Position numbers and translations under genes: made by a program
DNA from: a virus
Length of the DNA: 64,000 nt
IMG/VR virus record: IMGVR_UViG_3300047564_004575
Location: 8,661-72,660 of that record
Direction: 5' to 3' (one strand)
Shown: piece after piece, positions 18,222 through 37,591 of the stretch
Position numbering within the stretch: the first letter of the stretch is position 1
Layout of the letters: each line of letters begins with the position of its first letter
Notes under the pieces: generated by a model
Told to the model about the DNA's origin: nothing
Databases searched by the model: none
Seen by the model: the letters and a program-made list of their open reading frames with translations, nothing else

Positions 18222-18598
18222 AACGCATTAAACACCATCAACAGTTAAGGGAACGGATTGTAAAGGGCATGGACTCTGTCAGTGATGCCTATCAATCCGC
18301 CATGCTACAAACTATCTCCGAACCCTATCAATGGCCCGATGGGTTTGGCGTTACTCACCGTCGCAATGGGGAAGTAGTCGTCGGCTCTAACCGTAATATC
18401 GTGGACTTGGGTAATCTTAAAAACTCCCAAACTATGTTTCGCCAGGGATTAAAAACTACCTATGAATGGTCTGGCATGGGTGAAACACCGCCAGTTATTG
18501 TCCACGAGGGAGCTACACTAGCTAACGGAACTCAAATACCACCCCGACGCTGGACTGAGGTGGCAGTTGATAAAGTAGATTGGCAGGGATTGTTTTAG
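18218..18598 (+). CDS. Putative neck/tail completion protein (HK97 gp10-like)
   Basis: RNIVDLGNLKNSQ, VHEG, PPRRW. Confidence 0.6.
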   Translation: MKRIKHHQQLRERIVKGMDSVSDAYQSAMLQTISEPYQWPDGFGVTHRRNGEVVVGSNRNIVDLGNLKNSQTMFRQGLKTTYEWSGMGETPPVIVHEGATLANGTQIPPRRWTEVAVDKVDWQGLF

Positions 18599-19056
18599 CC
18601 TTGAATTTTAACGATCGCCGATTTACCAAAGTTTGGTTTGATAATTTCTCGTTTTTCTCCAGCAAGTTGTTTCCGAACCGTAGAGACTGCAGCGACTTCC
18701 GCCCCTACTATATTCAGTTCTGAAATAAATCGCTTTTGACCATCTTGTGACAAATTAGAACAGTCAATAGATGTCTGTAATCGTCGTAATTGCTTACGTT
18801 TTTTACGGTTAGCCGCTAGGTTTTGTTTCCGAACGTAAAATACAGCTTCCTCATCGGTCAAGATAGAAATACCGCCACTATTGGTCTTACAAACTACTTC
18901 TAATCTTGATTCGATTTGACTAACCAATTGCATCACAGCAAACGAATATTCCTGAGAGTCTACTTTATGCCCTGTAATCTTTTCGAGGTAGTCAGGGTTT
19001 ATATAATCACCTTTTTGTAAGGCATCAAAATCAAAGGGAAACTTTTCAACGTTCAT
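18595..19056 (-). CDS. Hypothetical protein, candidate accessory factor of the RAMP/pentamer-array locus
   Basis: Co-oriented immediately after the array; TGGAG RBS; basic helical C-terminal half. Confidence 0.7.
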   Translation of the reverse strand: MNVEKFPFDFDALQKGDYINPDYLEKITGHKVDSQEYSFAVMQLVSQIESRLEVVCKTNSGGISILTDEEAVFYVRKQNLAANRKKRKQLRRLQTSIDCSNLSQDGQKRFISELNIVGAEVAAVSTVRKQLAGEKREIIKPNFGKSAIVKIQG

Positions 19057-19185
19057 TACGAAACTCCAAAATAAATAAAAAGGGAGAGGGGCAATTAAGC
19101 CCCCATTAGACTAGACTTGGCGCGACCCAACGTGACTCGACGCGACAGGACTTGACTCGACGGAACTGAACTTGACATGGGTTTT

Positions 19186-19228
19186 GCCGTCTTCAAGAAT
19201 TGCACTTGATTAAACCACTAGGGACAGC
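19186..19228 (-). ncRNA. Mini tRNA-like element 1 (acceptor stem plus T arm, no anticodon arm)
   Basis: GCTGTCC-CTAGTGGTTTAA-TCAAG TGCAATT CTTGA-AGACGGC. Confidence 0.75.
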
Positions 19229-19335
19229 ATGACTAGGGAGTTACCCCTAGTAATTAGACTAGACTTGACAAAACTTGACTTGACATGACATGACCGAACT
19301 CGACATGACCCAACTTGACCAAACATGATTGTTTT

Positions 19336-19377
19336 GCCCTCCGATGGAATTGCACCACCGTTAACACTAGAGAAAGC
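19336..19377 (-). ncRNA. Mini tRNA-like element 2
   Basis: GCTTTCT-CTAGTGTTAAC-GGTGG TGCAATT CCATC-GGAGGGC. Confidence 0.75.
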
Positions 19378-19553
19378 ATGGGAGGGGCATAAGCCCCAAG
19401 ACCTAACTAAGCTTGACTAAGCGTGACCAGTCTAAACATGGCGAACCCCGTCGAGACTCGTGACGCTATCTTAATTAGGAGAAAAACATAGACTAGACCC
19501 GACTAAACGTGGCTTGACTTGGCTGGACTGAACAAAAACGCGACTAGAAAGTT

Positions 19554-19627
19554 TGGAAGCGATACTGGGAATCGAACCCAGGATAGAGATTTTGCAGATC
19601 CCTGCCTTACCACTTGGCTATATCGCT
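19554..19627 (-). tRNA. trnC: tRNA-Cys(GCA) embedded in the array
   Basis: AGCGATA/TATCGCT acceptor, D loop with GG, anticodon loop CT-GCA-AA, CTGGG-TTCGATT-CCCAG, U discriminator, encoded CCA. Confidence 0.95.
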
Positions 19628-19768
19628 TTGGAGACTAGGGAATTACCCCTAGTAATTAGACTAGACATGACCAGACGCGACTTGACGAGACGCAACCAAA
19701 CAAAACGCAACCGAACATAACCGAACGCGACAAGACGCGACTAAACCTAACACAACTCGATTGTTTTT

Positions 19769-19811
19769 GCCCCTTGCCAGAATTGCACTGGCTTAAACCA
19801 CTAGGAGAGGC
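19769..19811 (-). ncRNA. Mini tRNA-like element 3
   Basis: GCCTCTC-CTAGTGGTTTAA-GCCAG TGCAATT CTGGC-AAGGGGC. Confidence 0.75.
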
Positions 19812-19916
19812 GTGACTAGGGGAATTAACCCCTAGTAATTAGACTTGACGCGACGCGACCTGGCAAAACATAACCCGACACGGCGGAACCAAACAAAACT
19901 CAGCAAGAAAATCTGT

Positions 19917-20537
19917 TTAGAGTTCGACTTTAAAGCGACCAAACTCAGGACGGCGATCGCATAGTCCGATGATTTTGCCGCTTAGATGCAAGATATCAGC
20001 AATGTCAGCTTGGTTTACAACATCTGGCATATAGTCAACAACGATTTCCGCTTCCCATGACCGGAAAATAGGACGGGTACGCATAATAGCATTCTTCATC
20101 ACACGCTCAGCCCGAACGTCAACATAGTTGGCATCCGCCCATAACTCGTTAGTTCCTTTGTTAGTCCCAATGTCAAGACGGGCATCTTCACTAATCACAA
20201 TCCCAGCTTTAAACGTCGTCCCAAGCTTCTTCTTTTTAGCACCTGACAAAAGCATCCCTTTAATAACCGTAGCAGGTAAGCATGGCTTGCTATTGTCGGT
20301 AAAAGCAATGTCTGCCCCGTCAACGTCTAGATTGTGTTGACCTTCCAGATAAAGACCGGCATACCATTCTAATTTGCTGATAACGTCGAGGTCATCTTCA
20401 ACCTTTTTGCGCTTGCCGGTGTATTGCTTAATCAGTTGCGTGATGCCATTGCGAGGATTGACCAGAATATTGGCATTGTGCATTAACAGGGGAGTGTGTC
20501 CTATTAACTTTGCTTGCAGTGTTTTAAAACCGTCCAT
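19917..20537 (-). CDS. Stand-alone Cas7/RAMP-like RNA-binding protein (Vipr-like)
   Basis: L.G.TPLLMH first strand, PCLPATVIKGML (compare RAMP IPGSSLKG), RTRPIF..W, C-terminal G-loop GKIIGLCDRRPEFGRFKV. Confidence 0.75.
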   Translation of the reverse strand: MDGFKTLQAKLIGHTPLLMHNANILVNPRNGITQLIKQYTGKRKKVEDDLDVISKLEWYAGLYLEGQHNLDVDGADIAFTDNSKPCLPATVIKGMLLSGAKKKKLGTTFKAGIVISEDARLDIGTNKGTNELWADANYVDVRAERVMKNAIMRTRPIFRSWEAEIVVDYMPDVVNQADIADILHLSGKIIGLCDRRPEFGRFKVEL

Positions 20538-20566
20538 ACTTGCCTCGATGAATTTCTATATAAATC

Positions 20567-20595
20567 ATATTACCTGGCACACTGTTATTTGTCAA
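20567..20595 (-). promoter_or_regulatory. Sigma70-type promoter of the RAMP gene and array
   Basis: TTGACA-N17-TAATAT; GAGG RBS near 20543-20546. Confidence 0.75.
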
Positions 20596-20681
20596 CCAAA
20601 AAAGAATATGTAATGGACTTAATTTGTTTTGCCATCAAATATATGTGACCAAGTGGCGATCGCCACCCACCCCCATATAAA

Positions 20682-20751
20682 CCCAAAACCCATACACCGT
20701 AAGGCTTTCAAAAAGTGTTGCATATACTTTAGAAACTCCAGGGGACTGCAA
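20682..20751 (+). repeat. Dispersed 70-bp repeat, copy C
   Basis: AAACCCATACACCGTAAGGCTTTCAAAAAGTGTTGCATATACTTTAGAAACTCCAGGGGACTGCAA. Confidence 0.9.
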
Positions 20752-21923: not shown

Positions 21924-22280
21924 CTAAAGGCGGACAACTTTGACTGATACCCGACCTTGGGACTTTTTGGCGATGCGACTAAAGGCGGCTGACGATAGGT
22001 CAATTGAGCAATTACCACAACGGTCTGTGATGCGGACAATAACTGACTTGCCGGTTTTACGATTAGTCACTTTGACCCGTTGACCCAATCGGTAGTTATT
22101 ACTGGCAGCAGTCATAGCATTAGGGTTATATCGCGCCCCATTAGCCATTTTGCGACCCGCTAGACTGTGATGGTAGTAAGTAGCGGTTTGTGCCTCTACA
22201 GTGGCGGGAATGACCGTTAAAACGAGAGATAGGATGACTGTGGATAGTTTCATGGTGTTTCTAATTTGCTTAACTAGCAA
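21924..22280 (-). CDS. RlpA-like double-psi beta-barrel protein (lytic transglycosylase family), secreted
   Basis: Signal peptide, ATYY, GRKMANG..Y....TAA, VRITDR, IDLS.AAF; true start probably MKLST. Confidence 0.85.
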   Translation of the reverse strand: MLVKQIRNTMKLSTVILSLVLTVIPATVEAQTATYYHHSLAGRKMANGARYNPNAMTAASNNYRLGQRVKVTNRKTGKSVIVRITDRCGNCSIDLSSAAFSRIAKKSQGRVSVKVVRL

Positions 22281-22764: not shown

Positions 22765-23598
22765 TTATTCGACTAGATAACGAGGGCGATAGTGTGATCG
22801 TCGGTAATAGTCGTCTAATTGACCGATATATTCCCGTTTAAGCTGTTCATTCTCTTGGATATAGGCTGACATCTGCCACGCATCAGGATTGTCCTTTAAG
22901 CCAGAATCATCGATGTAATGGTTTAGTGTCTTGTAATCCGGTTTCCCGTGACGCATCAAGCCCAGTCGCTTACACAATTCAGATTTGGTAACGGTACTGC
23001 CATTATTGACAATGTCGTCATCCTTGATAATCCGATCCCGGTACTCAACCTTCGTTACTTCCGAATAGCCTAAGACTTTTTGCTGTACGACATCATCGCA
23101 TAGGGTGACTACGGTGTGACGGAACTGGACTAAGGACAAATCAGCTTGCTTGGCTTGGGCGATCGCCGTTTCTTTTTGAGCTTCCAGCCGCAATCCTTCA
23201 TTTTTCAAGTGTTGAAGTTCAATCTCTTGAGCCATTAATGGGTTAGTTGTTTGGAGTAACTTCCATTTCTTCTCTGTCTCAATGAAGTATTGACGAACCT
23301 GATGCCCTTCCTCAGTTTCAGACATCATGCAAAGATGCTTCATTGAGTCACAGGTGAGATGGAATACTTCAGACTTTGCCCCGCCACCTTGAGGACGTTT
23401 CACCATCTCCACATCTCGGTGGAAATCGATACCCTCAGTGAGTTTTATCAATTTACGCTTAGCTGAATCCTTGCGAGAATACCCAGCAATCTTCCAAGCA
23501 ATATCAAAATCGACTGGGAACTGTTCACCATTGCGTTCTGCTTCCATCCACTGATCAATCAGGGTTTTGGCATCGTAACTTAAAATCATATTAGACAT
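22765..23598 (-). CDS. Antirepressor-like protein (AntA-type N-terminus; C-terminus shared with the KilA-N ORF)
   Basis: FPVDFDIAWKIAGYSRKDSAKR, TCDSMKHLCMM..TEEG..VRQYF. Confidence 0.7.
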   Translation of the reverse strand: MSNMILSYDAKTLIDQWMEAERNGEQFPVDFDIAWKIAGYSRKDSAKRKLIKLTEGIDFHRDVEMVKRPQGGGAKSEVFHLTCDSMKHLCMMSETEEGHQVRQYFIETEKKWKLLQTTNPLMAQEIELQHLKNEGLRLEAQKETAIAQAKQADLSLVQFRHTVVTLCDDVVQQKVLGYSEVTKVEYRDRIIKDDDIVNNGSTVTKSELCKRLGLMRHGKPDYKTLNHYIDDSGLKDNPDAWQMSAYIQENEQLKREYIGQLDDYYRRSHYRPRYLVE

Positions 23599-26380: not shown

Positions 26381-29300
26381 TTAACGCATCTTACGTCGAT
26401 AGGTTCTTGCACCCTCGTCCTGTATTTGGGATTGGGATTTGCGGAAACTATCGGCGTTTGGTGTATTAATCACATAGGTCTGATTAAACTTATTGACCGT
26501 ATTAGTGCGTGAATTATTGACCGATTGAGAAGTGTTAGCGCCGCCAGCATTGACTAGGTTTTCCCAATTGCCTTGATAGTTGCGAGATTGAGTAAATAGG
26601 CGATCGCTACCGTTAGCAAAGTTGGGGATTTTATCCCAATTACCAGACCGTTTCAGAGCTTGGAATTTTTGAGCATCACCATTGAGAGTCGATAGAATAG
26701 CCTCACCGTCGTTCACTACTGCCAACATAGGCTTGCGACCTGTCATAGCTGATTCTTTAGCCATCACTTGGTCTAGACCATTAGCAAACTGAGGGATAAA
26801 AGAAGCACCTAGATTAACAAGGGAACCAAAGAAACCGGGTGAAGATTCAGAACCTTGTAATTGCGGAATAGCTTGCTGACCATAACCGAATAGATTAGAT
26901 GCTTGCTCGGCTAAAAAGTTAGTGAATGGCATCATAACCAATCGGTCAAATAATGTTGACGCAACAACGTCTAAAGTTTTAGTGAGAGCCTCAGTAAAGT
27001 TATTGGTTTGGAATACAGCTTCTTTCAAGTTTGCTCCTAGTTCCTTAACAAAAGGCACAGCCTCACTAAAGGATTGTTTTAAGTTGATATCAGCAATTTC
27101 TTGAGCCATTGCAACATATTGTGCCCGTTGATCACCTTCCAAACTTAATTCGTCAGCTTGAATATTTGCCCGTTTACTAGCAGTTGCCGCCATCAAACGA
27201 GCTTGGAGAATAGCGCCATCGTTTACCAACGTTCCGCCTAGATTATATTTAGCCGTGGACAGTTCCGCCATCTTGCCTACATATCCATCAACCAAAGCTA
27301 ATTGCTCTTGTAAATAAGCGCGGTTTTGGGCATTAGATTGGGCAATTCCTTTAGTCGTTTCTAGTTGTTTTTTTGATGCCTCTAGTAGTTCAATTTGTTG
27401 GTCATATTGAGCGTAAGTTGTCTCTAGTCTGTCCAACTCAGCTTGTTTTTGTTCTTCACTGTAACCGGCAGCTTTAGCAATAACTTCTAAGTTGGCGATC
27501 GCCATTTCTTTGCCGTCAGTTAATCGAGTCATATCCCGAATGGAATCAGAGATAGAACGTATTTGATTTTCATATTGGGAGGCAACATCTTGACCGGCTT
27601 GATTAACTTTTTGGGTAATCGTCAACCATCCTTTAGATGACTCCGTTAACTGTTTAACGCTTAGGTTAGCATCATGAACACTGCGATTAGTGGACTCCAA
27701 ACCGTCTTTTGTTGCGTTGACAAATTGCTGATAAGAGTCAATTAATTGAGCGACATTTAATCGAGCTTGGGCATCAACTCCCGCCTGTTTTAGTGCATTT
27801 AACTTGTCGCCTAGTTTGTCAATATGTGCGACTTGAGCCAACAAAGGATTAATGTCTTGGGGCTGATAAGCCTCCATCATATAGCCACCGACAGACGTAT
27901 TTTGAGCAGATTCGTAAGAGCCAATCGGGTCAAAACCTTGGGGCAATGGTGGCGATTCTTGATAGGTAAATTGAGTAGGATAATTAACGTATTCAGGTTG
28001 TTGATAAAACTGCTCAGGAATTACATTACCAGCATTATTGATAGGCGCATTAGACCCCATCGTAATAGTCGCCTGAGCTTTAATCATAGGCGGGGTTTGT
28101 TTCTGGAAATTATTATTTAACAGTTTCCGGTAACTTGCTTCCGATTGCCATTTCCAGTCATCACCAGCCCAGTAAACTTCTTTGCCATTACGGATTGCTT
28201 GCGATCCTAATGGGCGTTGACTGGCTTGTTGTTCTGATTGAATTTGAGTGCGTGCATTGGCAACCTGACGCTGTTGTTTAGCTTTTTGGAAATTAGCAAT
28301 ATCAACCATTCTTTCGTCAGGCGTTCTACCTACATATCGTTCAAATTGTCGCTGTAACTGAGCATCTATTGAGCGGTATTCAGCCAATTGTTTAATCAAT
28401 ACCTGTAAGTCTTTTTTGCTAATAGTAGACCCCAAAGCATCGACATACATATTCATAAAGTTGCGAGCCAAGTTTAACCGTTGGGCCATTGGCGTTGTGG
28501 TATTAGCAGGATTGACTAACTCTTCTTTTTTAATAACCCTTGGCTTAGGCGCTGGTTTAGGGCTAGGTGATGGTTGGGCATTAGCCGGGGGGATTAGGCT
28601 GGGATTAGGGAAAGCATAGGGATTATCTTTTTTGATTTGTTGAACGGCACTTTTACCTGTCTCGCGTTTAGGTGTCACGAACGGTACTCGCAACGCATCA
28701 TAACCAAAGTTTGCTACACCGTTTAAAAAGTTCTGAATAGGCTTAACAATAATCTCTTTTAACTGAGCATTCGATTCAAATTTAATCTCACCAGGATTAA
28801 CGCCAAAGTTAAGGGATTGCATTTGATTGGTAGGCTGTTGTAACTGTCGTTGCATATTCAAAACCGAGTTAGCATACCCAGTCCCTTTACCTGTTCCAAG
28901 ATTACCAAGCCCTGCATTGTAAGCAGCTAATGCTTTACGCCAATCCCCTGTTTTCTCATAAAGTAACCGCACATACTTCATGGCAATCTCGATGTTTTTC
29001 TGTACATCAAAACGGTCATTAGGATTATATCCAACATCTTTTGCTGCACCCCAACCTACCTGCATAGTGCCAACAAACGGGCCATATTTATCTTGGCTAG
29101 GAGACTTCATAATCTGCCCATCACTACGAGTATGACGATAGGTTCCTACGATAGGATTACCATTTTTGTCACGGGTTCCCGTTTCTTGGCTAGCCATCGC
29201 CAAGGCGATTTCAGCCGGTACATTAAATCGATTAGCGATGTTAACAATCACCGGCGTTAACGGATTATTGGCGACTCGCTGATTGTTCCAAATAGAAGAT

Positions 29301-32300
29301 TGTACCCGTGTCTGTACTGGTAGTGTGGTCTGTTGTTGTATCGGCTTAGGCTGTGAAATCTCACTAGGACTACCAGCAAAACCACCATACTGATTAGCAA
29401 AGTCTTTTAACCCTTGAATGTCTCCACGACTATAGGTACGGGTTGATTGAGTGGGTTGACTAACCCGATTATTCTTATCGCTCGGTACGGGGTCAATAGG
29501 ACGATTTAAAGGAGTTGCGATCGCCCGACCATTCATAGCCTGTTGTGGTGGCGCTACCCGTTGAGCAAGGGGTAAAATCATCGCAGGATTGTAGCTAGGA
29601 ACGCCCTGTAATTGACGGGTTAAATCTTGACCTTTAGCACTAGATTTATCGGCACGATTCATTGCAATAGTCATGTCTTGAATTGACCGAATAAATCCCC
29701 TTGCCGCTTGTTTCATATTACGATCAAGGTCAAAGAATGACCGATTCAATGTAATGACTTGACGGTTAAAATCACGGGTGGCATCTCGCTGTTTTTCTTC
29801 AAATTCCCTGATTTGACGTAACCGTCCGATGCGTTCTTTTTCCAAATTCAAAACATCAATTTTGATTTGTCGCTCATTAGTGTTGTTACTAAATACCGAT
29901 TCGGTATAACGAAGCATAATGTCATTCAGTTGCCGCGCAATACTGCCAGAATTACCAGGGGTGATAGATAGGTTATTAATCCGTAATTGAGTCAGTTCTA
30001 GCTGGTCTTGAGCATCATTAATTGCCTTACCAACGGATTCGACTTGAACATTAAAATCAAATGCCATGTCTTGGTAAGATTCGGCTAAAGCTCGATTACT
30101 ACGCCGCAAACTAACACTGGCATCTGCTAACTGGAAACCTAAATCTTGTAGTGAACGTTGGTCTTGGATTTGTTGTGATTCAATTTGTAGCTTCAAATCC
30201 GCTACTTGACGGGCTGTATTGCGATAGTAATCTTCAAAACCAAAGTCCTGGGTTAAATCATATTTTGCCTTAGCAATAGAGCTGCCTGCATTAGCTAGTT
30301 CGACTGACTGTTCCCTTACTCGACCACGTAATTCTTCAATCTTAGATCGTTTCTCGGAGCTATCGCCAACATTAGAAATAGATAAAGCCTCTGCTAAAGC
30401 CTGCTCATTTTCCCGTAAGGTTTTAGCTAAAATAGCGTAGTCTTTTTTAGCCCCCTCAAGTGTTGTTTCTTGCACTTTCCGGTTAACAATCAAGCTACCT
30501 CCGCCCTGATTGTAGATATCTTCAGTGGACTTACTCAAGGCAATGGCGTTAACCGCCTTGACTCGATTCAAGGCTGATTCAACGTCTTGGATTTTATTGA
30601 CAACCCGATCCCAAACATCCTCTAATGGTTTAGCAATCTGGGTTATTCCTTGACCGGCAAAATAATTCTTAATTTCTTCCGATAGTTGTTTTAACGGTTC
30701 TAGACGCTGTTCCGCTGCACGTTTAGCCGAGTCTTGCCATCCAGAGTTATTGATTGCATCAGTCTGGGATTTAACAAAAGATTCTAAATCTTTAGAAAAA
30801 GAATCAAGTTCAATAAATGGCTTAGCCAGTTCTTTGCGGGTTTTAAGTAAATCATTTAATTCTTGGTCTAGCTTGCGAACTTCTGCCCGTGATTGTGCGG
30901 TATTCTCTAGCCCTAACGTCATGCGAAGGTCTTGCTTCGCTTTCATTTTTGCATCAATATCCTTGACTTCATTTAAAGCATTTAAAGCATTAGAACTTAG
31001 TGGTTTAGTTAAGTCGTTAACATCAAAGGTCGTATTACCTTTTGACAGTTGATTGATTGCGTTTTTATATTCTTGGTCAAACCCAATAACAGAATCAAGA
31101 AATTGATCTTTTGCTAGCGTTGGAATCTCATTAGCATTCTTAATGTAATAGTCTGACACGCCTAGTCGCTTAGCTTCTGCAATCCGTTTTTCTGACATCG
31201 ACGTATCAGGAATTAAAGCATTAACAAAAGCAGATACCGGCGATTCTGTGACAAACGGGATTCGAGGGAGTTTCGGTAGCTTGTTAATTGCGTTAGATAG
31301 GGATAACACAACATCTCGCATCTTGCCCATTGCGCCAGTAGATGAGTTAATTTTATTAATCAAGTCATCAGACTTAAATGATTTCTCAGAACGTCCCATG
31401 AATATAGCTTCAAGATTAAGCTCTAGTCCCTTAGACGGTAATTTGATAGAGCTAATCGTTTTACCCGTTTTTGCACCCTGTTCCTCTAATGTTTTTAATG
31501 CTACTTTCATCGCATCTACTGAACCGATAAATGCTTTTCGCGCTTTGTTAGATTCGGATTCGACAGTGTTAGAAAAGTCGCTGCGAGCAAAAGCCATCAT
31601 GGCGACTGCTAAGCCTGCTTCAGCAGCTAACATAGCACCACCCATCAGAATCTTTTTAGCCGCCATCTGCTTCATGCGACGATTTAGTAATTCGTCACGT
31701 TGGGACTCATAACGGACTAGAGAATCATTCTCAGGGGATGACCCCAGATCTTTTTGATATAACCGCTTAAGTTCCCTTAATTCTTGTTGTTTTGCCTTGA
31801 TAGCGTCTTGACGAGTGATAATGTTGCCACTATTGTTTTGTTCTTGATCACGAAATCCTTCGATTATATTGTTCCGGTCTTGTTTATATTGATTTAACCT
31901 TTGATTGCGTTTTTGTTCTGTCGCTAATTTGCGTTGGACATTATATTGTTCTTTTATTTGTCGCAATTCAACTTCATTCATCGCAATAGCATCTTTGCGA
32001 CTAATCTTATTGTTTTCCATCGATTCATTAATTAGTGCCTCTCTTCGTTCTTTATAGTCTTTTAAATCATTCGAAACGGTATCAATTCTTAGTTGTTTAA
32101 ACTCATTACTATACTGCTTAAAAACATCGGCTGGTTTAACACCACCTACTGCGATTAACGTACCCCCCATTAAATCACCCATAGTACGCTTCATTGTTCG
32201 CATATTGACAACGGCATCGCTTATCGCTTTGCCCCATCCTATTACTGCCAATGACAAGTTTTTAAAAGTAGGAACCAAGAAAAGGTTAGCTAGTACCCTT

Positions 32301-35300
32301 ACTTGCTCAAACATAAAGACGAGGGATAGCATCTCAATCACCCCGCCTGGTATCGCTTTTTTGATACTTTCAATCCCTTTTACAACCGGCTCAAAAATAT
32401 TCTTAGACTCCTTAAATGGATCGAACATTGCTCCCATGTCGGCATCGCGCATATAGCGGTCAGCTACTGTAAAACCAGCGACAAACATATTGCCGACACC
32501 ACGACTCATGTTTTCCATGACATTGTTTTGGGTTCCAAAAAGATCGTCTACAATGTCTGCTACGGTGCCAATGATGAACGGGGTTAATGTTCCTAGTGAA
32601 TTTTTGAAGGCTGACAATAACAGATTACTTCCCCCTTTAGCCATATTGGCGATCGCAGGGGTTTTCATGATGAAAGATAAACCAATACCAATTGATGCCC
32701 ATACTGCAATCAACCCGGATACTGCCAAGGCGTTTAAGATTTTAAAGTTGTCCGCCATGAAGTTCAGGATGTTACCCCACGTATTTTTTACGAAGGTAAA
32801 TAATCCGCCATACGTATCAGCAAAGTTTTTATTGATTTTGAAGTTAATGTTTTCTAACCGACTACTTGCCGCGGCGTAATTATCACCCATCGATAAAGCG
32901 ACAGACCCGAAGTCATCTTTTAATACTTTGGTGACACCTGTTACCCATTTCTCAGTACCGATAGCACCACGGCTAACCATGTCATCTAATCCCGCCGTAG
33001 TGGTATCTAATGCCTTAGCAAAAACACTCATTGCAGGGGGAAATCGCTCACCTAATTGTTGACGCAATTCCTCCATGCTAATCCTGCCCTTTGCCAACAT
33101 TTGAGTGTAAGCCATAAAGATTAGGTCAGCATCTTGGGTACTTAACCCCAACGCTCGGATTGAAGCAGAAATACCCTCAAACAAATCCATCATCTCCTGT
33201 CCTGTGAGGTTGGTATTTTGAGCGGCGATCGCCATCTGAGAAAAGTTTTGTACAGCCGGTTCGACGGGTATAGAATACTTGTTAGCAATATCAGTGATTT
33301 TTTGTTGTTTTTCTTCCCCTAACTCTGAAGTTCCCTCAAGTGTTATAAATCGTTGCTTGATAGGCTCCTGTTGTAATAATGCTTGGTCTATTCGCTGTAC
33401 AACCGGAGCAACTAAGCTACCGACTGCCAATGTTGCCATAGCAGGGGGGACTAAAGGCATAAATAGAGGAGCTGCGGCGATCGCGGGCATTAATTGAGGT
33501 GTAAATGTAGATGCCCCAGCCATTGCAAAGGTGACAATTTGACTCATTAAGTTACCGTCTAGTCCGGTTTTTTCACCTAAAGAAGTCCGAATTTTGCGCA
33601 TAAAATTGTCATAATACTCGACAGTCCCTTCTCCCAAATTCTTCTCAGCGGTATCGCGTATTTTGTCAATTAACTTTGATTCATCAGCTCGTTTATAGAT
33701 AGATTCCCCACCTTGTTTTGCAGCAAAAAACAGAGAAGACAATCCAACGGATTTTAGTAATCCTTTAATGCCACCTACCACCGGATTATCACCTAGTTGA
33801 TTGTCGGCAATGTTATCTAATAAACGACTTGCAATAGAAGCTCGTCGATCCGTCCCAATCGTCTCTTTAATTGCGTTTTGTACTTCTTGGGTTACATTAC
33901 CAGTGCCTATCTGATTACCTTGCTGATTAACGCCAAATCCTTGGGTAGCTCGTTTTTCCTGTTCATCATTATTCCTGCTACCAAAGAATCTTTTAACACG
34001 ACTACTAAGTTTAGAGATAATGCCTTCATTGATGCTGACAACATCTTCAAATACCTGGTCGGCAACAGTTGTCATCACCTTATCTTTTTTGGCTTTTACG
34101 CTATCTCTGAATTGACGTTCTTTTAAAGCGATCGCATCTATAGACTTCTGATAACGTTCAAACTCCCGTAAACGCTGTTCCTTGACTTTAATTAGTTCAT
34201 CTTGGGCACTACGATTTTGTGCAATAGCAATTTGCTCTTTCCTTGCAATATCACGCTGTTCTTTGGCTTCTTTTTGATTAACATTAGCCAGCAACCCATT
34301 GTAGCGAGTTTCAATAGCGGGGGATAAATCCTGGTATTGATTTAATTCAGTTTGACGATTTTGTTTAGCCGCATTACGACGACGATTAAACTGTTCACGG
34401 ATGCGTTTTTGTGATTCCTGACTACGACCATCTAATGATCGCAACATGGCAACTTGTAATCCATTGTCAAGTTCATCATATTTTTTATTGATTTCATCAC
34501 GGGCGATTTTATTGTTAGCATCAATCTCCCTCGATTCTGCTAACTCTTTATTCATTCGTTGGGTGATTTTAGCTCTTACAGCATTATATTTGGAGCTTAC
34601 GTCATTACGTTGTGACCCGATATCACTAAGGCTAGATTCTAGCTGATCAGCCAACAATTGATTACTTTTATCAAAATCTTGCTGAACTTTATTGACAGCA
34701 TCTTTTAATCCAACGCCATACCGTTCAAAAAACTTTTTATCAACTTTTGACTTAGCAGTTCTCAAAAACGCAATGTAATTATTGACATCGTTAGAGACTA
34801 AATCTAATCCGCCAATGGTCGTAATTTTATCCATCTTAGATAAAATCTGACCGCCATCATTTAGGCTTGTTTTTGGTATTTTGTTGCCATTGCCAGTAGG
34901 GACAGGAATATTATTTAATGTTGTAGGATTGTAGATCTTTGCAAATTGGTCTTCGGCAAATCCAATTCGCCCCGCTTCGTTTTTACCTAGAGCAAAAAGC
35001 TTAACTGAATTAGCAGTAATGGAGTCAATTTTTTGATTAACAAATTTAGCAGTCTTATCCCAATTCTTACGAATCCAGTCAGTGGGGCCAGGTGAACCTT
35101 CAGACATATTTTTTTGTAACGGATAGGCTTGTTTTTTAGCCGTTTCCGTCATCTCCCACATATCATCTTGTACAGCTTTCTTGGTTTTCTCCCAATTTTC
35201 TTCTATTTTTTTATTCTCATTTTTTGATGCCTTTATTTTAGTAATATCAGGCATTTCAACAGCGTCAGCATCAAGGGTTACGCCTTTAAATGCCGACTCA

Positions 35301-37591
35301 TCCATTTTGTATTTTTTGACATCAAAACCAAATCCTTTACCTTGCTCTTCTAGTCGCTTAACTTGAGCTTTAAAAGCACTAGATAAAGAAGCAATATCAC
35401 CCTTCATTCTGTCCAACGGGTCAATAGTTCCCCGCATTTTAGCTAAGAATTCAAACGTTACTTTTTGAGCTGCTTTATATTGTGATTCCCAGTCACTTTG
35501 AACAGTGGACTGAATGATAGGATCTAACTGTTTAAATTCAGCCGGCTTGAGTTGTTTTAAGCCTGGCAATGCTACCGATTGAGGCATAAAATCGCCTTGA
35601 TTAGCCCGTTCAATTCCCGCAGCCTTTGGTAAATACTCTCCAATTAACTTACGTTGATTTGCAGGCAAGGTCGGCAAGTAAGCATCAAGATTCTGAGCTT
35701 TTTCAATCAACTTAGATACTTTACTAGATGCAACCTTACCTACACTCTCAATCTGTCTATAAAGTTTAGGCTGTTCTGTAGATGGGGCGATCGCCTCAGT
35801 GATTTTGTTTTGAGCTTTCTTAGCCCCCGCCTCACCCAATACCCGTAAACTTTGACCACCCAAGACAGCCGCACCGATTTCAGCCCCTCCACCCGTAACA
35901 AAACCGACTGCGGTTTGAATAGCAGACTGGAGATTACCAATGATGGCATTGGCTAATGGATTGCCCATAGCACTAGGTAGAACGCCGGTAATTTCTCGAA
36001 CCAATCCGCTAATCGTTTGAACAAACCCCGCCTCTAACGGATTAACCCCACTGGCGATCGCATCCTTCACTAGATGGGTAATCAACTGTGCGATTTGATG
36101 TCCCCCTGGTAACTGAGAGATACCGGCAAAAGCCGCAGTCGGGATAGCAATTTTAGCAGTGGTTTGAATAGCACCTTTCGCTTTGTTGGGCATCCCCATC
36201 GGGTCTAGAGAAAACACACCTTGCTCGATTGCTTTCGCACCCTTGTACCCAGCTTGACCAATTCCTATTGCTCCCCTTACCCCTGCCTTGGCTGATTCGA
36301 CTAATGTGGAGATAGCTTCTCCCTTTAAATCCCCAGCCGCCAACTTTCCCTTCTCCGCCATCAAACTAACGGATTGTTTCGGCTTAGTCAGGTAATCCAT
36401 GACCGTTGGATTATCCGTAGTCCGTACAATGACATCACTATCAACTTTTGCCCCTTTTTGATATTCAATTAATCGGTCACGATACCCCTTCATTACAGGG
36501 TCATCACCGACATCACCGATTGTTTTTAGTTGGCTAGAAATATCGTTCTTGATTTGTCGAACTTGTTTATAGTCATTACTATTTACCGCTAAATCTAAAC
36601 GACTAGACAGTTCACCGATTAACTTTTCAGCATCACGATACTGTTTTAACTTGGCTGATACTTGTCCAGAAACAGCATTTAAAGTAGCAGACAATTTGGC
36701 GATCGCATCAATCTGTAAATTGACTTGCTGCCCCATCGCAATTACTTCTGCATTGGATGGGATACCTTTAGCCCCAATCGTTTTATTTGATTCTCTTAAA
36801 TTTTCCTTGATTGTTTTTGACTGTTGTTTTAAATCATCAATAACAGCCTTTTCTTTGTCTAAACCTTTTGACTTCGATACTGACTTGGAAACACTACCAA
36901 GTAAGTCATCAACATCATCCATCTGGGATTGATACTGTTTAATCCTTTCAGCTTCTTTTTTCTTAGCTTGTACATTCGGGAAAGCGTAACTGATCGTAGA
37001 GTCAGCCGCTTTTTTACCCATATCTTTTAAGTCAACATTTAAGTCTTGACTTAAAATAGACATAAAGCCTTCAGACAATTCTTTCGATATAGTCTGACCA
37101 AACCCTTCAAAAAAGCCCCTACCAATACCGGCTAATGGCGCAGTAGCAATATCTCCAAATTTATTAACTACTTTCTTTATTTCCCCGGTAAGCTTTTGTT
37201 CAACCTCATTAAATAAAGTCCCTGAACCGTAACCCTTGTCTTGACCCTGCCCCCCAGTACTACGATTAGACTGAGCACTATGATTATTTTTTTCACGCTC
37301 TTCTCTTAGCTCTTTTAATGATTCCTTGACTTCATCTACTTCAGATGTATCTACGCCAATAACAATAGGATTCTTTTTATAAAACTCTACGGTTTCCGAT
37401 AAGTGATCCTGCTTAACATCCAAAAGCTTGTTTAAATCATGCAAAGCTTTGGCGTTTACTTTAGGATTAATTGCGCCTGCCCGTTCAATCCGAGACAATT
37501 TAGCCATTGCTTTATTGACGGCACTATCAATATCACGGCTCAATTGAGAGTCATCAGCAACTAATTCTAAAACCAAAGTCTCAAGATTCAT
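26381..37591 (-). CDS. Tape measure protein with internal soluble lytic transglycosylase domain
   Basis: QMLAKGRISMEELRQQLGERFP tape-measure motif; coiled coils; SLT motifs MASQET, GTMQV, ALAAYNAG (~28850-29250). Confidence 0.9.
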   Translation of the reverse strand: MNLETLVLELVADDSQLSRDIDSAVNKAMAKLSRIERAGAINPKVNAKALHDLNKLLDVKQDHLSETVEFYKKNPIVIGVDTSEVDEVKESLKELREEREKNNHSAQSNRSTGGQGQDKGYGSGTLFNEVEQKLTGEIKKVVNKFGDIATAPLAGIGRGFFEGFGQTISKELSEGFMSILSQDLNVDLKDMGKKAADSTISYAFPNVQAKKKEAERIKQYQSQMDDVDDLLGSVSKSVSKSKGLDKEKAVIDDLKQQSKTIKENLRESNKTIGAKGIPSNAEVIAMGQQVNLQIDAIAKLSATLNAVSGQVSAKLKQYRDAEKLIGELSSRLDLAVNSNDYKQVRQIKNDISSQLKTIGDVGDDPVMKGYRDRLIEYQKGAKVDSDVIVRTTDNPTVMDYLTKPKQSVSLMAEKGKLAAGDLKGEAISTLVESAKAGVRGAIGIGQAGYKGAKAIEQGVFSLDPMGMPNKAKGAIQTTAKIAIPTAAFAGISQLPGGHQIAQLITHLVKDAIASGVNPLEAGFVQTISGLVREITGVLPSAMGNPLANAIIGNLQSAIQTAVGFVTGGGAEIGAAVLGGQSLRVLGEAGAKKAQNKITEAIAPSTEQPKLYRQIESVGKVASSKVSKLIEKAQNLDAYLPTLPANQRKLIGEYLPKAAGIERANQGDFMPQSVALPGLKQLKPAEFKQLDPIIQSTVQSDWESQYKAAQKVTFEFLAKMRGTIDPLDRMKGDIASLSSAFKAQVKRLEEQGKGFGFDVKKYKMDESAFKGVTLDADAVEMPDITKIKASKNENKKIEENWEKTKKAVQDDMWEMTETAKKQAYPLQKNMSEGSPGPTDWIRKNWDKTAKFVNQKIDSITANSVKLFALGKNEAGRIGFAEDQFAKIYNPTTLNNIPVPTGNGNKIPKTSLNDGGQILSKMDKITTIGGLDLVSNDVNNYIAFLRTAKSKVDKKFFERYGVGLKDAVNKVQQDFDKSNQLLADQLESSLSDIGSQRNDVSSKYNAVRAKITQRMNKELAESREIDANNKIARDEINKKYDELDNGLQVAMLRSLDGRSQESQKRIREQFNRRRNAAKQNRQTELNQYQDLSPAIETRYNGLLANVNQKEAKEQRDIARKEQIAIAQNRSAQDELIKVKEQRLREFERYQKSIDAIALKERQFRDSVKAKKDKVMTTVADQVFEDVVSINEGIISKLSSRVKRFFGSRNNDEQEKRATQGFGVNQQGNQIGTGNVTQEVQNAIKETIGTDRRASIASRLLDNIADNQLGDNPVVGGIKGLLKSVGLSSLFFAAKQGGESIYKRADESKLIDKIRDTAEKNLGEGTVEYYDNFMRKIRTSLGEKTGLDGNLMSQIVTFAMAGASTFTPQLMPAIAAAPLFMPLVPPAMATLAVGSLVAPVVQRIDQALLQQEPIKQRFITLEGTSELGEEKQQKITDIANKYSIPVEPAVQNFSQMAIAAQNTNLTGQEMMDLFEGISASIRALGLSTQDADLIFMAYTQMLAKGRISMEELRQQLGERFPPAMSVFAKALDTTTAGLDDMVSRGAIGTEKWVTGVTKVLKDDFGSVALSMGDNYAAASSRLENINFKINKNFADTYGGLFTFVKNTWGNILNFMADNFKILNALAVSGLIAVWASIGIGLSFIMKTPAIANMAKGGSNLLLSAFKNSLGTLTPFIIGTVADIVDDLFGTQNNVMENMSRGVGNMFVAGFTVADRYMRDADMGAMFDPFKESKNIFEPVVKGIESIKKAIPGGVIEMLSLVFMFEQVRVLANLFLVPTFKNLSLAVIGWGKAISDAVVNMRTMKRTMGDLMGGTLIAVGGVKPADVFKQYSNEFKQLRIDTVSNDLKDYKERREALINESMENNKISRKDAIAMNEVELRQIKEQYNVQRKLATEQKRNQRLNQYKQDRNNIIEGFRDQEQNNSGNIITRQDAIKAKQQELRELKRLYQKDLGSSPENDSLVRYESQRDELLNRRMKQMAAKKILMGGAMLAAEAGLAVAMMAFARSDFSNTVESESNKARKAFIGSVDAMKVALKTLEEQGAKTGKTISSIKLPSKGLELNLEAIFMGRSEKSFKSDDLINKINSSTGAMGKMRDVVLSLSNAINKLPKLPRIPFVTESPVSAFVNALIPDTSMSEKRIAEAKRLGVSDYYIKNANEIPTLAKDQFLDSVIGFDQEYKNAINQLSKGNTTFDVNDLTKPLSSNALNALNEVKDIDAKMKAKQDLRMTLGLENTAQSRAEVRKLDQELNDLLKTRKELAKPFIELDSFSKDLESFVKSQTDAINNSGWQDSAKRAAEQRLEPLKQLSEEIKNYFAGQGITQIAKPLEDVWDRVVNKIQDVESALNRVKAVNAIALSKSTEDIYNQGGGSLIVNRKVQETTLEGAKKDYAILAKTLRENEQALAEALSISNVGDSSEKRSKIEELRGRVREQSVELANAGSSIAKAKYDLTQDFGFEDYYRNTARQVADLKLQIESQQIQDQRSLQDLGFQLADASVSLRRSNRALAESYQDMAFDFNVQVESVGKAINDAQDQLELTQLRINNLSITPGNSGSIARQLNDIMLRYTESVFSNNTNERQIKIDVLNLEKERIGRLRQIREFEEKQRDATRDFNRQVITLNRSFFDLDRNMKQAARGFIRSIQDMTIAMNRADKSSAKGQDLTRQLQGVPSYNPAMILPLAQRVAPPQQAMNGRAIATPLNRPIDPVPSDKNNRVSQPTQSTRTYSRGDIQGLKDFANQYGGFAGSPSEISQPKPIQQQTTLPVQTRVQSSIWNNQRVANNPLTPVIVNIANRFNVPAEIALAMASQETGTRDKNGNPIVGTYRHTRSDGQIMKSPSQDKYGPFVGTMQVGWGAAKDVGYNPNDRFDVQKNIEIAMKYVRLLYEKTGDWRKALAAYNAGLGNLGTGKGTGYANSVLNMQRQLQQPTNQMQSLNFGVNPGEIKFESNAQLKEIIVKPIQNFLNGVANFGYDALRVPFVTPKRETGKSAVQQIKKDNPYAFPNPSLIPPANAQPSPSPKPAPKPRVIKKEELVNPANTTTPMAQRLNLARNFMNMYVDALGSTISKKDLQVLIKQLAEYRSIDAQLQRQFERYVGRTPDERMVDIANFQKAKQQRQVANARTQIQSEQQASQRPLGSQAIRNGKEVYWAGDDWKWQSEASYRKLLNNNFQKQTPPMIKAQATITMGSNAPINNAGNVIPEQFYQQPEYVNYPTQFTYQESPPLPQGFDPIGSYESAQNTSVGGYMMEAYQPQDINPLLAQVAHIDKLGDKLNALKQAGVDAQARLNVAQLIDSYQQFVNATKDGLESTNRSVHDANLSVKQLTESSKGWLTITQKVNQAGQDVASQYENQIRSISDSIRDMTRLTDGKEMAIANLEVIAKAAGYSEEQKQAELDRLETTYAQYDQQIELLEASKKQLETTKGIAQSNAQNRAYLQEQLALVDGYVGKMAELSTAKYNLGGTLVNDGAILQARLMAATASKRANIQADELSLEGDQRAQYVAMAQEIADINLKQSFSEAVPFVKELGANLKEAVFQTNNFTEALTKTLDVVASTLFDRLVMMPFTNFLAEQASNLFGYGQQAIPQLQGSESSPGFFGSLVNLGASFIPQFANGLDQVMAKESAMTGRKPMLAVVNDGEAILSTLNGDAQKFQALKRSGNWDKIPNFANGSDRLFTQSRNYQGNWENLVNAGGANTSQSVNNSRTNTVNKFNQTYVINTPNADSFRKSQSQIQDEGARTYRRKMR

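Follow-up and report, generated by a model that had tools for sequence, protein, structure and literature searches.

VIPR (Viral Interference Programmable Repeat), a phage-borne, CRISPR-like system of RNA-guided DNA silencing, was first described in 2026 (bioRxiv 10.64898/2026.04.26.720920 and 10.64898/2026.04.26.720927). According to these preprints, Vipr is a minimal RAMP protein with an RRM core, a G-loop and a thumb that binds one 5-nt repeat per protomer, with the constant triplet buried, and the vrRNAs consist of 9-16 GGY/NN repeats followed by a conserved tail. A VIPR array has at least 4 units in tandem and lies in intergenic DNA beside vipr, on the vipr strand; its vrRNAs are RNAs of roughly 100 nt that bind Vipr. 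The NN positions pair with DNA by a '1-nt skip' rule, whereby every third target base is skipped, and the complex silences the transcription of rival phages and satellites (10.64898/2026.04.26.720920; 10.64898/2026.04.26.720927). The Vipr protein of SUSP1 was solved in complex with a pentamer-repeat RNA, and its W178 stacks on G2 (10.64898/2026.04.26.720927). 'Solo' vrRNAs carried by satellites and rival phages have also been shown in published work to hijack a phage's Vipr. The kind of system is thus already in print, and triplets other than GGY are mentioned there as well: the founding paper leaves room for 'a related consensus', its methods giving NNNGG, YNNNG and NNNNG (10.64898/2026.04.26.720920), and a computational report based on a genomic language model names non-canonical VIPR-like arrays of the types GAC/NN, CAC/NN, WGT/NN and TGH/NN (10.64898/2026.10.21.760802).

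The window studied here, that is, the whole stretch of 64,000 nt that was analysed, comes from an IMG/VR virus record of 72.7 kb and carries the genes for the terminase large subunit and the portal protein. In the window, an 860-nt gap (19057-19916) between two minus-strand ORFs (19917-20537 and 18595-19056) is made up of phased pentamers that read G-Y-Y-N-N on the minus strand. This region is very probably the vrRNA array of a VIPR system in a freshwater cyanophage, expected by homology to work like that of SUSP1. It is assigned to VIPR because a Vipr homologue lies upstream, a vipr-associated gene (vap) lies downstream and the repeats have the corresponding anatomy. The evidence consists of this repeat anatomy, the homology of both Vipr and vap, their co-orientation with the array, and the covariation between one protein residue and one repeat base across the family. 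On the minus strand the order is vipr (19917-20537), array (19057-19916) and vap (18595-19056), with the following features:

19917-20537, minus strand: vipr (P0001, 206 aa), a Vipr homologue directly upstream of the array
19840-19904, minus strand: putative vrRNA tract A, 12 units (10 GTY, 2 GCC) plus a possible GCTGA unit; starts 12 nt past the vipr stop
19815-19836 (hand-counted), minus strand: hairpin 1 after tract A, ACTAGGGG-TTAATT-CCCCTAGT, a candidate 3′ tail or handle
19757-19814, minus strand: inter-tract module, copy 1, with CCTAGTGGTTTAA, a stem-loop with the conserved loop TGCAATT, and GGCAAAA
19657-19756, minus strand: putative vrRNA tract B, 20/20 GTY units, the last two constant GTCTA, then hairpin 1
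about 19634-19653, minus strand: hairpin 1 after tract B
19554-19627, minus strand: tRNA-Cys (GCA), found by ARAGORN and matching Rfam RF00005 (65 bits, E 3.5e-13)
19489-19544, minus strand: tract C, 2 units, a 1-nt slip and 9 units (two GCC); GTCTA-GTCTA end, without hairpin
19384-19427, minus strand: tract D with a GGGGC-TTAT-GCCCC hairpin; 6 units at 19398-19427, two of them GCT
19325-19383, minus strand: inter-tract module, copy 2, from pattern search and structure prediction
19255-19324, minus strand: putative vrRNA tract E, 14/14 GTY units, the last two constant GTCTA, then hairpin 1
about 19230-19251, minus strand: hairpin 1 after tract E
19177-19229, minus strand: inter-tract module, copy 3, from pattern search and structure prediction
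19107-19176, minus strand: putative vrRNA tract F, 14 units (13 GTY, 1 GCC), the last two constant GTCTA
19070-19104, minus strand: terminator-like hairpin GGGGGC-TTAATT-GCCCC(T) followed by a T-rich run; resembles an intrinsic terminator and closes the array
18595-19056, minus strand: vap-like accessory gene (P0002, 153 aa), directly downstream of the array

The HIP1 motif is linked to cyanobacteria. It (GCGATCGC) occurs 49 times, versus 0.49 copies expected, and the record is present in freshwater metagenome runs, which are DNA runs. Together, the HIP1 excess and the freshwater runs suggest that the virus is probably a freshwater cyanophage whose host is a cyanobacterium, unlike SUSP1, which is an Escherichia phage. 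The neighbouring genes are phage structural genes and genes of unknown function.

With exact registers, 77 phased G-Y-Y-N-N units are found on the minus strand between 19107 and 19904. Position 1 of the pentamer is G in 77/77 units, position 2 is T in 70 and C in 7, and position 3 is always a pyrimidine (C in 49, T in 28; 77/77). The two remaining positions carry next to no information over these 77 units (0.09 bits at position 4 and 0.08 bits at position 5). The constant triplet is therefore G-T-Y in 70/77 units and G-C-Y in 7/77, and never the canonical GGY. With such a triplet the locus stays inside the range described for the VIPR family, but departs from the code of the characterised systems. 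Strict GT[CT] runs on the minus strand are 19657-19756 (20/20 units), 19255-19324 (14/14), 19122-19176 (11/11) and 19840-19899 (10/12, the other two being GCC). No such runs were found on the plus strand, elsewhere in the 64-kb window or in the remaining 8.7 kb of the virus record, and a run scoring at least 5 appeared in 0/100 mononucleotide shuffles. In the strong tracts A, B, E and F (12, 20, 14 and 14 units, respectively), all 16 dinucleotides are present at NN among the 53 non-terminal units. A previous sequence-only reading of this DNA had proposed pentamers with three constant and two variable positions, and the 77 units with about 0.09 bits at NN confirm it. The same reading counted six strictly phased tracts; this holds for the four strong ones, in which phase is indeed kept over 11-20 units while NN varies freely, and fails for the two weak ones, C being slipped by 1 nt and D having only 6 units. 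Tract C is probably a decayed or otherwise atypical vrRNA, and tract D is weak and possibly a remnant.

Constant GUCUA units close 5/6 tracts, GTCTA-GTCTA in B, C, E and F and a single GTCTA in A, exactly as the sequence-only reading had noticed, and a hairpin stands directly 3′ of 5/6 tracts. As also claimed there, the hairpins are of two types: ACTAGGGG-loop-(C)CCCTAGT after A, B and E, and GGGGC-loop-GCCCC after D and F; none follows tract C. The hairpin, common to 5/6 tracts, is taken as the candidate tail. A longer module of about 55-60 nt is present in three copies, each between hairpin 1 and the next tract, and contains CCUAGUGGUUUAA, the loop UGCAAUU and GGCAAAA. The RNAalifold consensus of the three copies, all from one genome, has 21 pairs, and compensatory changes occur in 7 of these. 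This module could be a part of the 3′ tail, a processing element or site, or a 5′ leader or promoter. In the nearest GUY-type relatives, whose Vipr proteins are 32-36% identical, the arrays are compact and the linkers measure only about 9 nt. The tRNA-Cys lies inside the array on the same strand, starting a few bases past the hairpin of tract B. No tRNA was found near the array in any of the other vipr loci examined (0/123), and no Rfam matches beyond the tRNA were obtained in the region. The hairpin that closes the array is the single terminator-like site in 18900-20700, a number not above that in shuffles (mean 1.8).

The product of the upstream gene, P0001, matches the PDB chain 36pp_D, 'SUSP1 Vipr protein', over its full length (phmmer E 5.3e-16; residues 5-206 to 2-189), as well as phrog_4652 (E 5.7e-39). 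Its AF2 model, built from a 60-sequence alignment, has a pLDDT of 94.2, and the top Foldseek matches of the model are Csm3/Cas7 proteins (E 1e-5, prob 1.0; 63 chains at E <= 1e-3). P0001 is thus predicted to have the Csm3/Cas7 RAMP fold. The G-loop (G-L-C-D-R-R-P-x-F-G) and the thumb (R-T-R-P-I-F-R-S-W) align with those of SUSP1 Vipr. The SUSP1 contact residues H17, R138, D177 and R179 have identical counterparts in H20, R155, D194 and R196, and W178 is replaced by R195. P0001 is expected to be a minimal RAMP protein that binds one 5-nt repeat per protomer. Pattern searches for close relatives found none that could be confirmed: 10 matches to P0001 were obtained in viral contigs, none of which held up, and the handle pattern of the array had 0 matches in genome contigs and 0 in viral contigs. 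With the pattern ending in GTCTAGTCTA, 15 + 5 loci were retrieved, all of them (GTCTA)n microsatellites, though one looks VIPR-like.

The downstream gene product, P0002, has no name in Pfam, NCBIfam or PDB, and its neighbours in the Atlas are viral hypothetical proteins. In a jackhmmer search over the ORFs of the fetched loci, 26 of the 29 rows from outside the window are located in vipr loci, among the matches listed. These 26 homologues are all on the vipr strand within about 400 nt, 23 downstream and 3 upstream among the matches listed, and the family occurs in both GGY and GTY loci. P0002 is therefore considered to be the vap of this system. No BLASTP similarity was detected between P0002 and the gene next to vipr in phage wV8.

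The closest described system is the type II VIPR of SUSP1 and the Felixounavirus phages. Both sides share a homologous Vipr, in which the residues of the G1, thumb and Y3 contacts are kept, 5-nt units in tandem whose triplet is constant and whose NN is hypervariable, more than one vrRNA (putative here) encoded on the vipr strand, and a two-gene core of vipr and vap in a phage. Tract length is comparable as well, at 11-20 units here versus 9-16 in the published systems. In the SUSP1-family phage wV8, the last unit or units are likewise constant and a structured element follows the tract. There are also differences. The triplet is G-U-Y with Arg here, versus G-G-Y with W178 in SUSP1. Here vipr and vap enclose the array; in wV8, vipr abuts the next gene and the arrays flank the pair. 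The hairpin and the module are unlike the SUSP1 tail, and only the present array has an embedded tRNA. The non-canonical arrays named in the genomic language model report share with this locus the period of 5, a constant triplet other than GGY and an adjoining Vipr-like fold; their GAC is the reverse complement of the GTC found here, but read on the vipr strand the present repeat is GUY/NN.

The class 1 CRISPR backbone (Cas7/Csm3) is a more distant parallel. It shares the RAMP fold, one protomer per short RNA segment and a thumb that periodically interrupts the pairing between guide and target. However, VIPR buries 3 bases in every 5 nt, against 1 flipped base in every 6 nt in class 1 CRISPR, and the present system lacks a repeat-spacer array and is virus-encoded. 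No CRISPR direct repeats (about 25-40 nt) with spacers were found, TRF and the sequence itself showing only the period of 5 and its multiples, and no other cas genes were found among the neighbours scanned. TRAP, the trp RNA-binding attenuation protein of Bacillus, is an oligomer that also reads a constant triplet, (G/U)AG-NN, repeated with spacers of 2-3 nt. Its fold is unrelated to that of Vipr, it forms a ring and not a filament, and its spacers carry no guide information. A TRAP-like ring was dropped as a candidate after P0001 had matched SUSP1 Vipr and the association between repeats and Vipr had been seen across loci.

This association comes from a blind search of IMG/VR for uninterrupted runs of ten GTYNN units, which returned at least 120 loci. 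Among the loci listed, 52 have NN-diverse tracts, often several per locus, and 68 are microsatellite-like. A Vipr homologue is present in 38/52 of the former versus 0/68 of the latter, among the matches listed; the 14 NN-diverse loci without Vipr are mostly short loci or have their tracts near the locus end. With a comparison set of 120 GGYNN loci, Vipr homologues were found in 124 loci overall. None of these mixes triplet types: 39 are GTY-pattern loci and 85 are GGY loci. The GGY arrays are on the vipr strand in 85/85 loci. The 39 GTY-pattern arrays are on the vipr strand in 21 cases (the window included), on the opposite strand in 17 and on both in 1. If co-orientation is the rule, the co-directional GTY-pattern loci make GUY/NN RNAs and the opposite ones make GAC/NN RNAs. 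Since the GTC strand is opposite to vipr in 17 of the 39 loci, some other phages probably do make GAC/NN RNAs.

The same loci may provide a clue to what sets the second constant base. In the subclade of the window, the residue at the W178 site is R or S in 4/4 GUY loci and Y or F in 7/7 GGY loci. For a family-wide test, a quick IQ-TREE was made for 117 Vipr proteins from an alignment that includes the trait's own column, after 7/124 rows had been dropped (aligned domain <150 aa or <8 units). At least 19 changes of repeat type are counted on this tree. An aromatic residue occupies the site in 64/80 GGY loci versus 6/21 GUY loci (Fisher p 1.7e-5), in a sample that is not unbiased because the loci were picked by exact 10-unit patterns. 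Among 10 phylogenetically independent pairs, the aromatic residue is replaced by a non-aromatic one with GUY in about 6.5, the reverse is seen in 0 and no difference in 3.4 (sign test, median p 0.016). These data make the W178 site a candidate for the feature of the protein that sets the second constant base; it does not do so alone, as 6/21 GUY loci keep an aromatic residue there.

By homology to SUSP1, the following mechanism can be proposed. The array would be transcribed from the minus strand and then cut into separate vrRNAs, each with a (G-U-Y-N-N)n tract that closes on constant GUCUA, in one unit or two, and is followed by a short hairpin as its tail. Along the tract, protomers of Vipr would polymerise, one per pentamer, leaving G-U-Y buried and NN exposed, with U instead of G as the second constant base, in step with the change from the SUSP1 G-loop Trp to Arg195. 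The NN string may then pair with double-stranded DNA in the gapped register NN-x-NN-x..., and a competing mobile element, for instance a satellite, a prophage or a second phage, would thereby be silenced at the level of transcription. By cutting at the tRNA-Cys, RNase P and RNase Z may set vrRNA B apart from tract C, and tracts C and D would be decayed guides. The guide function of the tracts is thus attributed by homology to the published system. The sequence-only reading had arrived at separate guides with their information in the NN positions and a 3′ handle, which agrees with the published VIPR mechanism and which the homology supports; it had also allowed for 1-3 skipped bases, and this fits the single skipped base of the published rule. 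Raw sequence was thus enough to arrive at a kind of system that experiments described only in 2026, which validates the reasoning of that reading.

A different VIPR array can be imagined, in which the functional RNA is the plus-strand (N-N-R-A-C)n, of the 'GAC/NN' type, and the hairpins serve as 5′ handles. This motif is named as a non-canonical VIPR repeat in the genomic language model report (10.64898/2026.10.21.760802), the GTC strand is opposite to vipr in the 17/39 GTY-pattern loci mentioned above, and there are two promoter-like sites on the plus strand inside tracts. However, the promoter-like matches are by-products of the TTGACA formed by the repeats, their number (4) being within that of shuffles (2.9 +/- 1.8). 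In this locus the GUY strand is the vipr strand, as for 85/85 canonical arrays, and the minus strand also carries the tRNA-Cys, vap and the terminator-like hairpin. Moreover, the degenerate position is a Y at triplet position 3, as in GGY, and only in the minus reading do the constant units and the hairpin follow the tract, as in wV8. We regard the plus-strand reading as improbable.

Still less probable is that the tracts act as DNA, that is, as phased protein-binding sites resembling an iteron, a centromere or a packaging site, rather than as transcribed guides. The portal and terminase genes are about 0.5-3 kb from the array, a 5-bp phase is half a helical turn, and the runs containing the region are DNA metagenomes only. 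On the other hand, the neighbour is a RAMP protein homologous to one that was solved with a pentamer-repeat RNA, and the NN positions carry no information, unlike iterons. In the stem of the module, changes compensate each other while the loop is conserved, a pattern typical of structured RNA. In addition, the pair of repeats and protein is found away from packaging genes elsewhere, for example beside the DNA polymerase/dihydrofolate reductase region of wV8. Packaging or iteron DNA sites were dropped after the match of P0001 to Vipr and the association test.

Finally, ordinary sequence, meaning a slippage microsatellite or short ORFs with pentapeptide-like repeats (the latter dropped after the same match and test), has a negligible chance of being the answer: TRF does report short arrays of period 5, 10, 15 and 20 and a 41-aa ORF (19254-19379, minus strand) overlaps tract E, but the 16/16 dinucleotides at NN are the opposite of homogenised units, as the sequence-only reading had argued, a Vipr gene is present in none of the 68 microsatellite loci of the same pattern among the matches listed, a 5-nt phase cannot be a codon phase, and start codons and frames differ between tracts, tract B having no ATG.

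If the minus-strand tracts are VIPR guides, their NN strings may point to targets, and the sequence-only reading had proposed a gapped search with them. Such searches gave no enrichment over shuffles in the phage itself and no convincing target in IMG/VR, metagenomes or cyanobacterial genomes. In its own phage, guides A, B, C, E and F with 0-3 skipped bases yielded nothing above 100 shuffles. Exact 1-nt-skip patterns had 0 matches each in IMG/VR viral contigs for B (11 units), F (12) and E (12). A 9-unit seed of guide B had 37 matches in JGI metagenome contigs; the best of them extends to 10/18 (28/30 over 15 contiguous units), but the contig concerned (L266) is visibly GC-rich, and the match was therefore judged to be due to chance. 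In 401 cyanobacterial genomes, 12 units of guide B with at most 3 mismatches gave 1 match, with 3 mismatches, against 0 for the reversed-pattern control, and its extension (3/12) is at chance level. An all-against-all comparison of 329 of 376 guides with 2.5 Mb of fetched loci found no skip-1 enrichment over shuffles; since this includes the canonical GGY guides, the comparison is considered to be without power.

Relative to the published work, the locus is modestly novel in three respects: a co-directional GUY code, the covariation at the W178 site and an array punctuated by a tRNA in a cyanophage. No GUY, GTY or GUC triplet was found in the main texts of the VIPR papers, whose supplementary figures or data may list variants, and main-text passages of these papers and of the genomic language model report contained no mention of cyanophages or a tRNA; the supplements may also list cyanophage members or the VIPR type of this clade. 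The locus therefore adds a cyanophage example and a co-directional G-U-Y triplet to the biology of VIPR. The W178 site lends itself to exchanges of the residue together with the triplet, from which mutually orthogonal pairs of Vipr and vrRNA might be obtained for programmable silencing in multiplex. The in-array tRNA is a possible processing device, comparable to the published hammerhead-interspersed arrays. More tentatively, and with the odds against it, the triplet might be an evolvable 'address' for orthogonal Vipr-vrRNA pairs, with GGY, GUY and GAC interconverting repeatedly and the change from G to U accompanying the loss of the aromatic residue. The cyanophage system would then have been re-addressed and be resistant to hijacking, with a tRNA processed by the host as punctuation of its array. 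If this is true, the triplet switch would be an escape from hijacking by solo vrRNAs.

The array itself is present beyond the original record: contigs of a second study contain it with identical sequence, and two further runs hold fragments only.

At least 17 vipr loci of IMG/VR (L015, L025, L026, L049, L039 and L107, among others) carry GTC-pattern tracts on the strand opposite vipr, and these tracts therefore read as GAC/NN in the vipr sense. In the Vipr proteins of these loci the LLMHN motif is mostly missing, and the thumb mostly has K-C-F-P replacing R-x-R-P. These loci seem to form another non-canonical class of VIPR, separate from the first.

Among the matches listed, the closest relatives of the GUY type (GTY-pattern tracts on the vipr strand) have arrays that are compact runs of (GUUNN)n separated by linkers of only ~9 nt (GYAUUAUAA-like), and no long tails were found in the arrays of L106, L067 and L091:

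L106, 13280-13700, minus strand: compact (GUUNN)n array
L067, 1806-1871 and 3200-3320, minus strand: compact (GUUNN)n arrays
L091, minus strand: compact (GUUNN)n array

The Vipr protein of the phage, P0001, has an insertion of ~15 aa at about residues 66-85 (window 20283-20340), which is missing from all 10 of the 10 subclade relatives. Its position matches that of the sole low-confidence stretch in the predicted model (block pLDDT 67).

A 172-kb IMG/VR viral contig (L298), retrieved with the GTCTAGTCTA pattern, has two neighbouring NN-diverse GTY tracts at 300-470; this is a candidate VIPR-like locus. For the loose end at window position 19530 (run X4), a freshwater contig of the same sample runs on into pentamers of the GGCTC-GGCTG-GGCTG type. 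These could be a canonical GGY-type array belonging to another element of the community, or else a simple repeat.

Under the 1-nt skip rule (NN-x-NN-x pairing with DNA), guide B, the NN string of the tract at 19657-19756, can be aligned with positions 1812-1864 of the metagenome contig L266. The alignment spans 15 contiguous units and agrees in 28 of the 30 informative positions, and 18 of these positions were set by the search seed. The match was judged to be probably due to chance because of base composition, L266 being a GC-rich contig.

The HIP1 octamer GCGATCGC is a mark of cyanobacteria. Its 49 copies in the 72.7-kb record (the window plus the preceding 8.7 kb), versus 0.49 expected from base composition, point to a cyanobacterium as the probable host of the phage. 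Other genes in the phage genome include the following, the first two lying 1.4-3 kb upstream of vipr:

21924-22280, minus strand: DPBB lytic-transglycosylase-like protein
22765-23598, minus strand: AntA/Ant-like anti-repressor
26381-37591, minus strand: single ORF of 3736 aa
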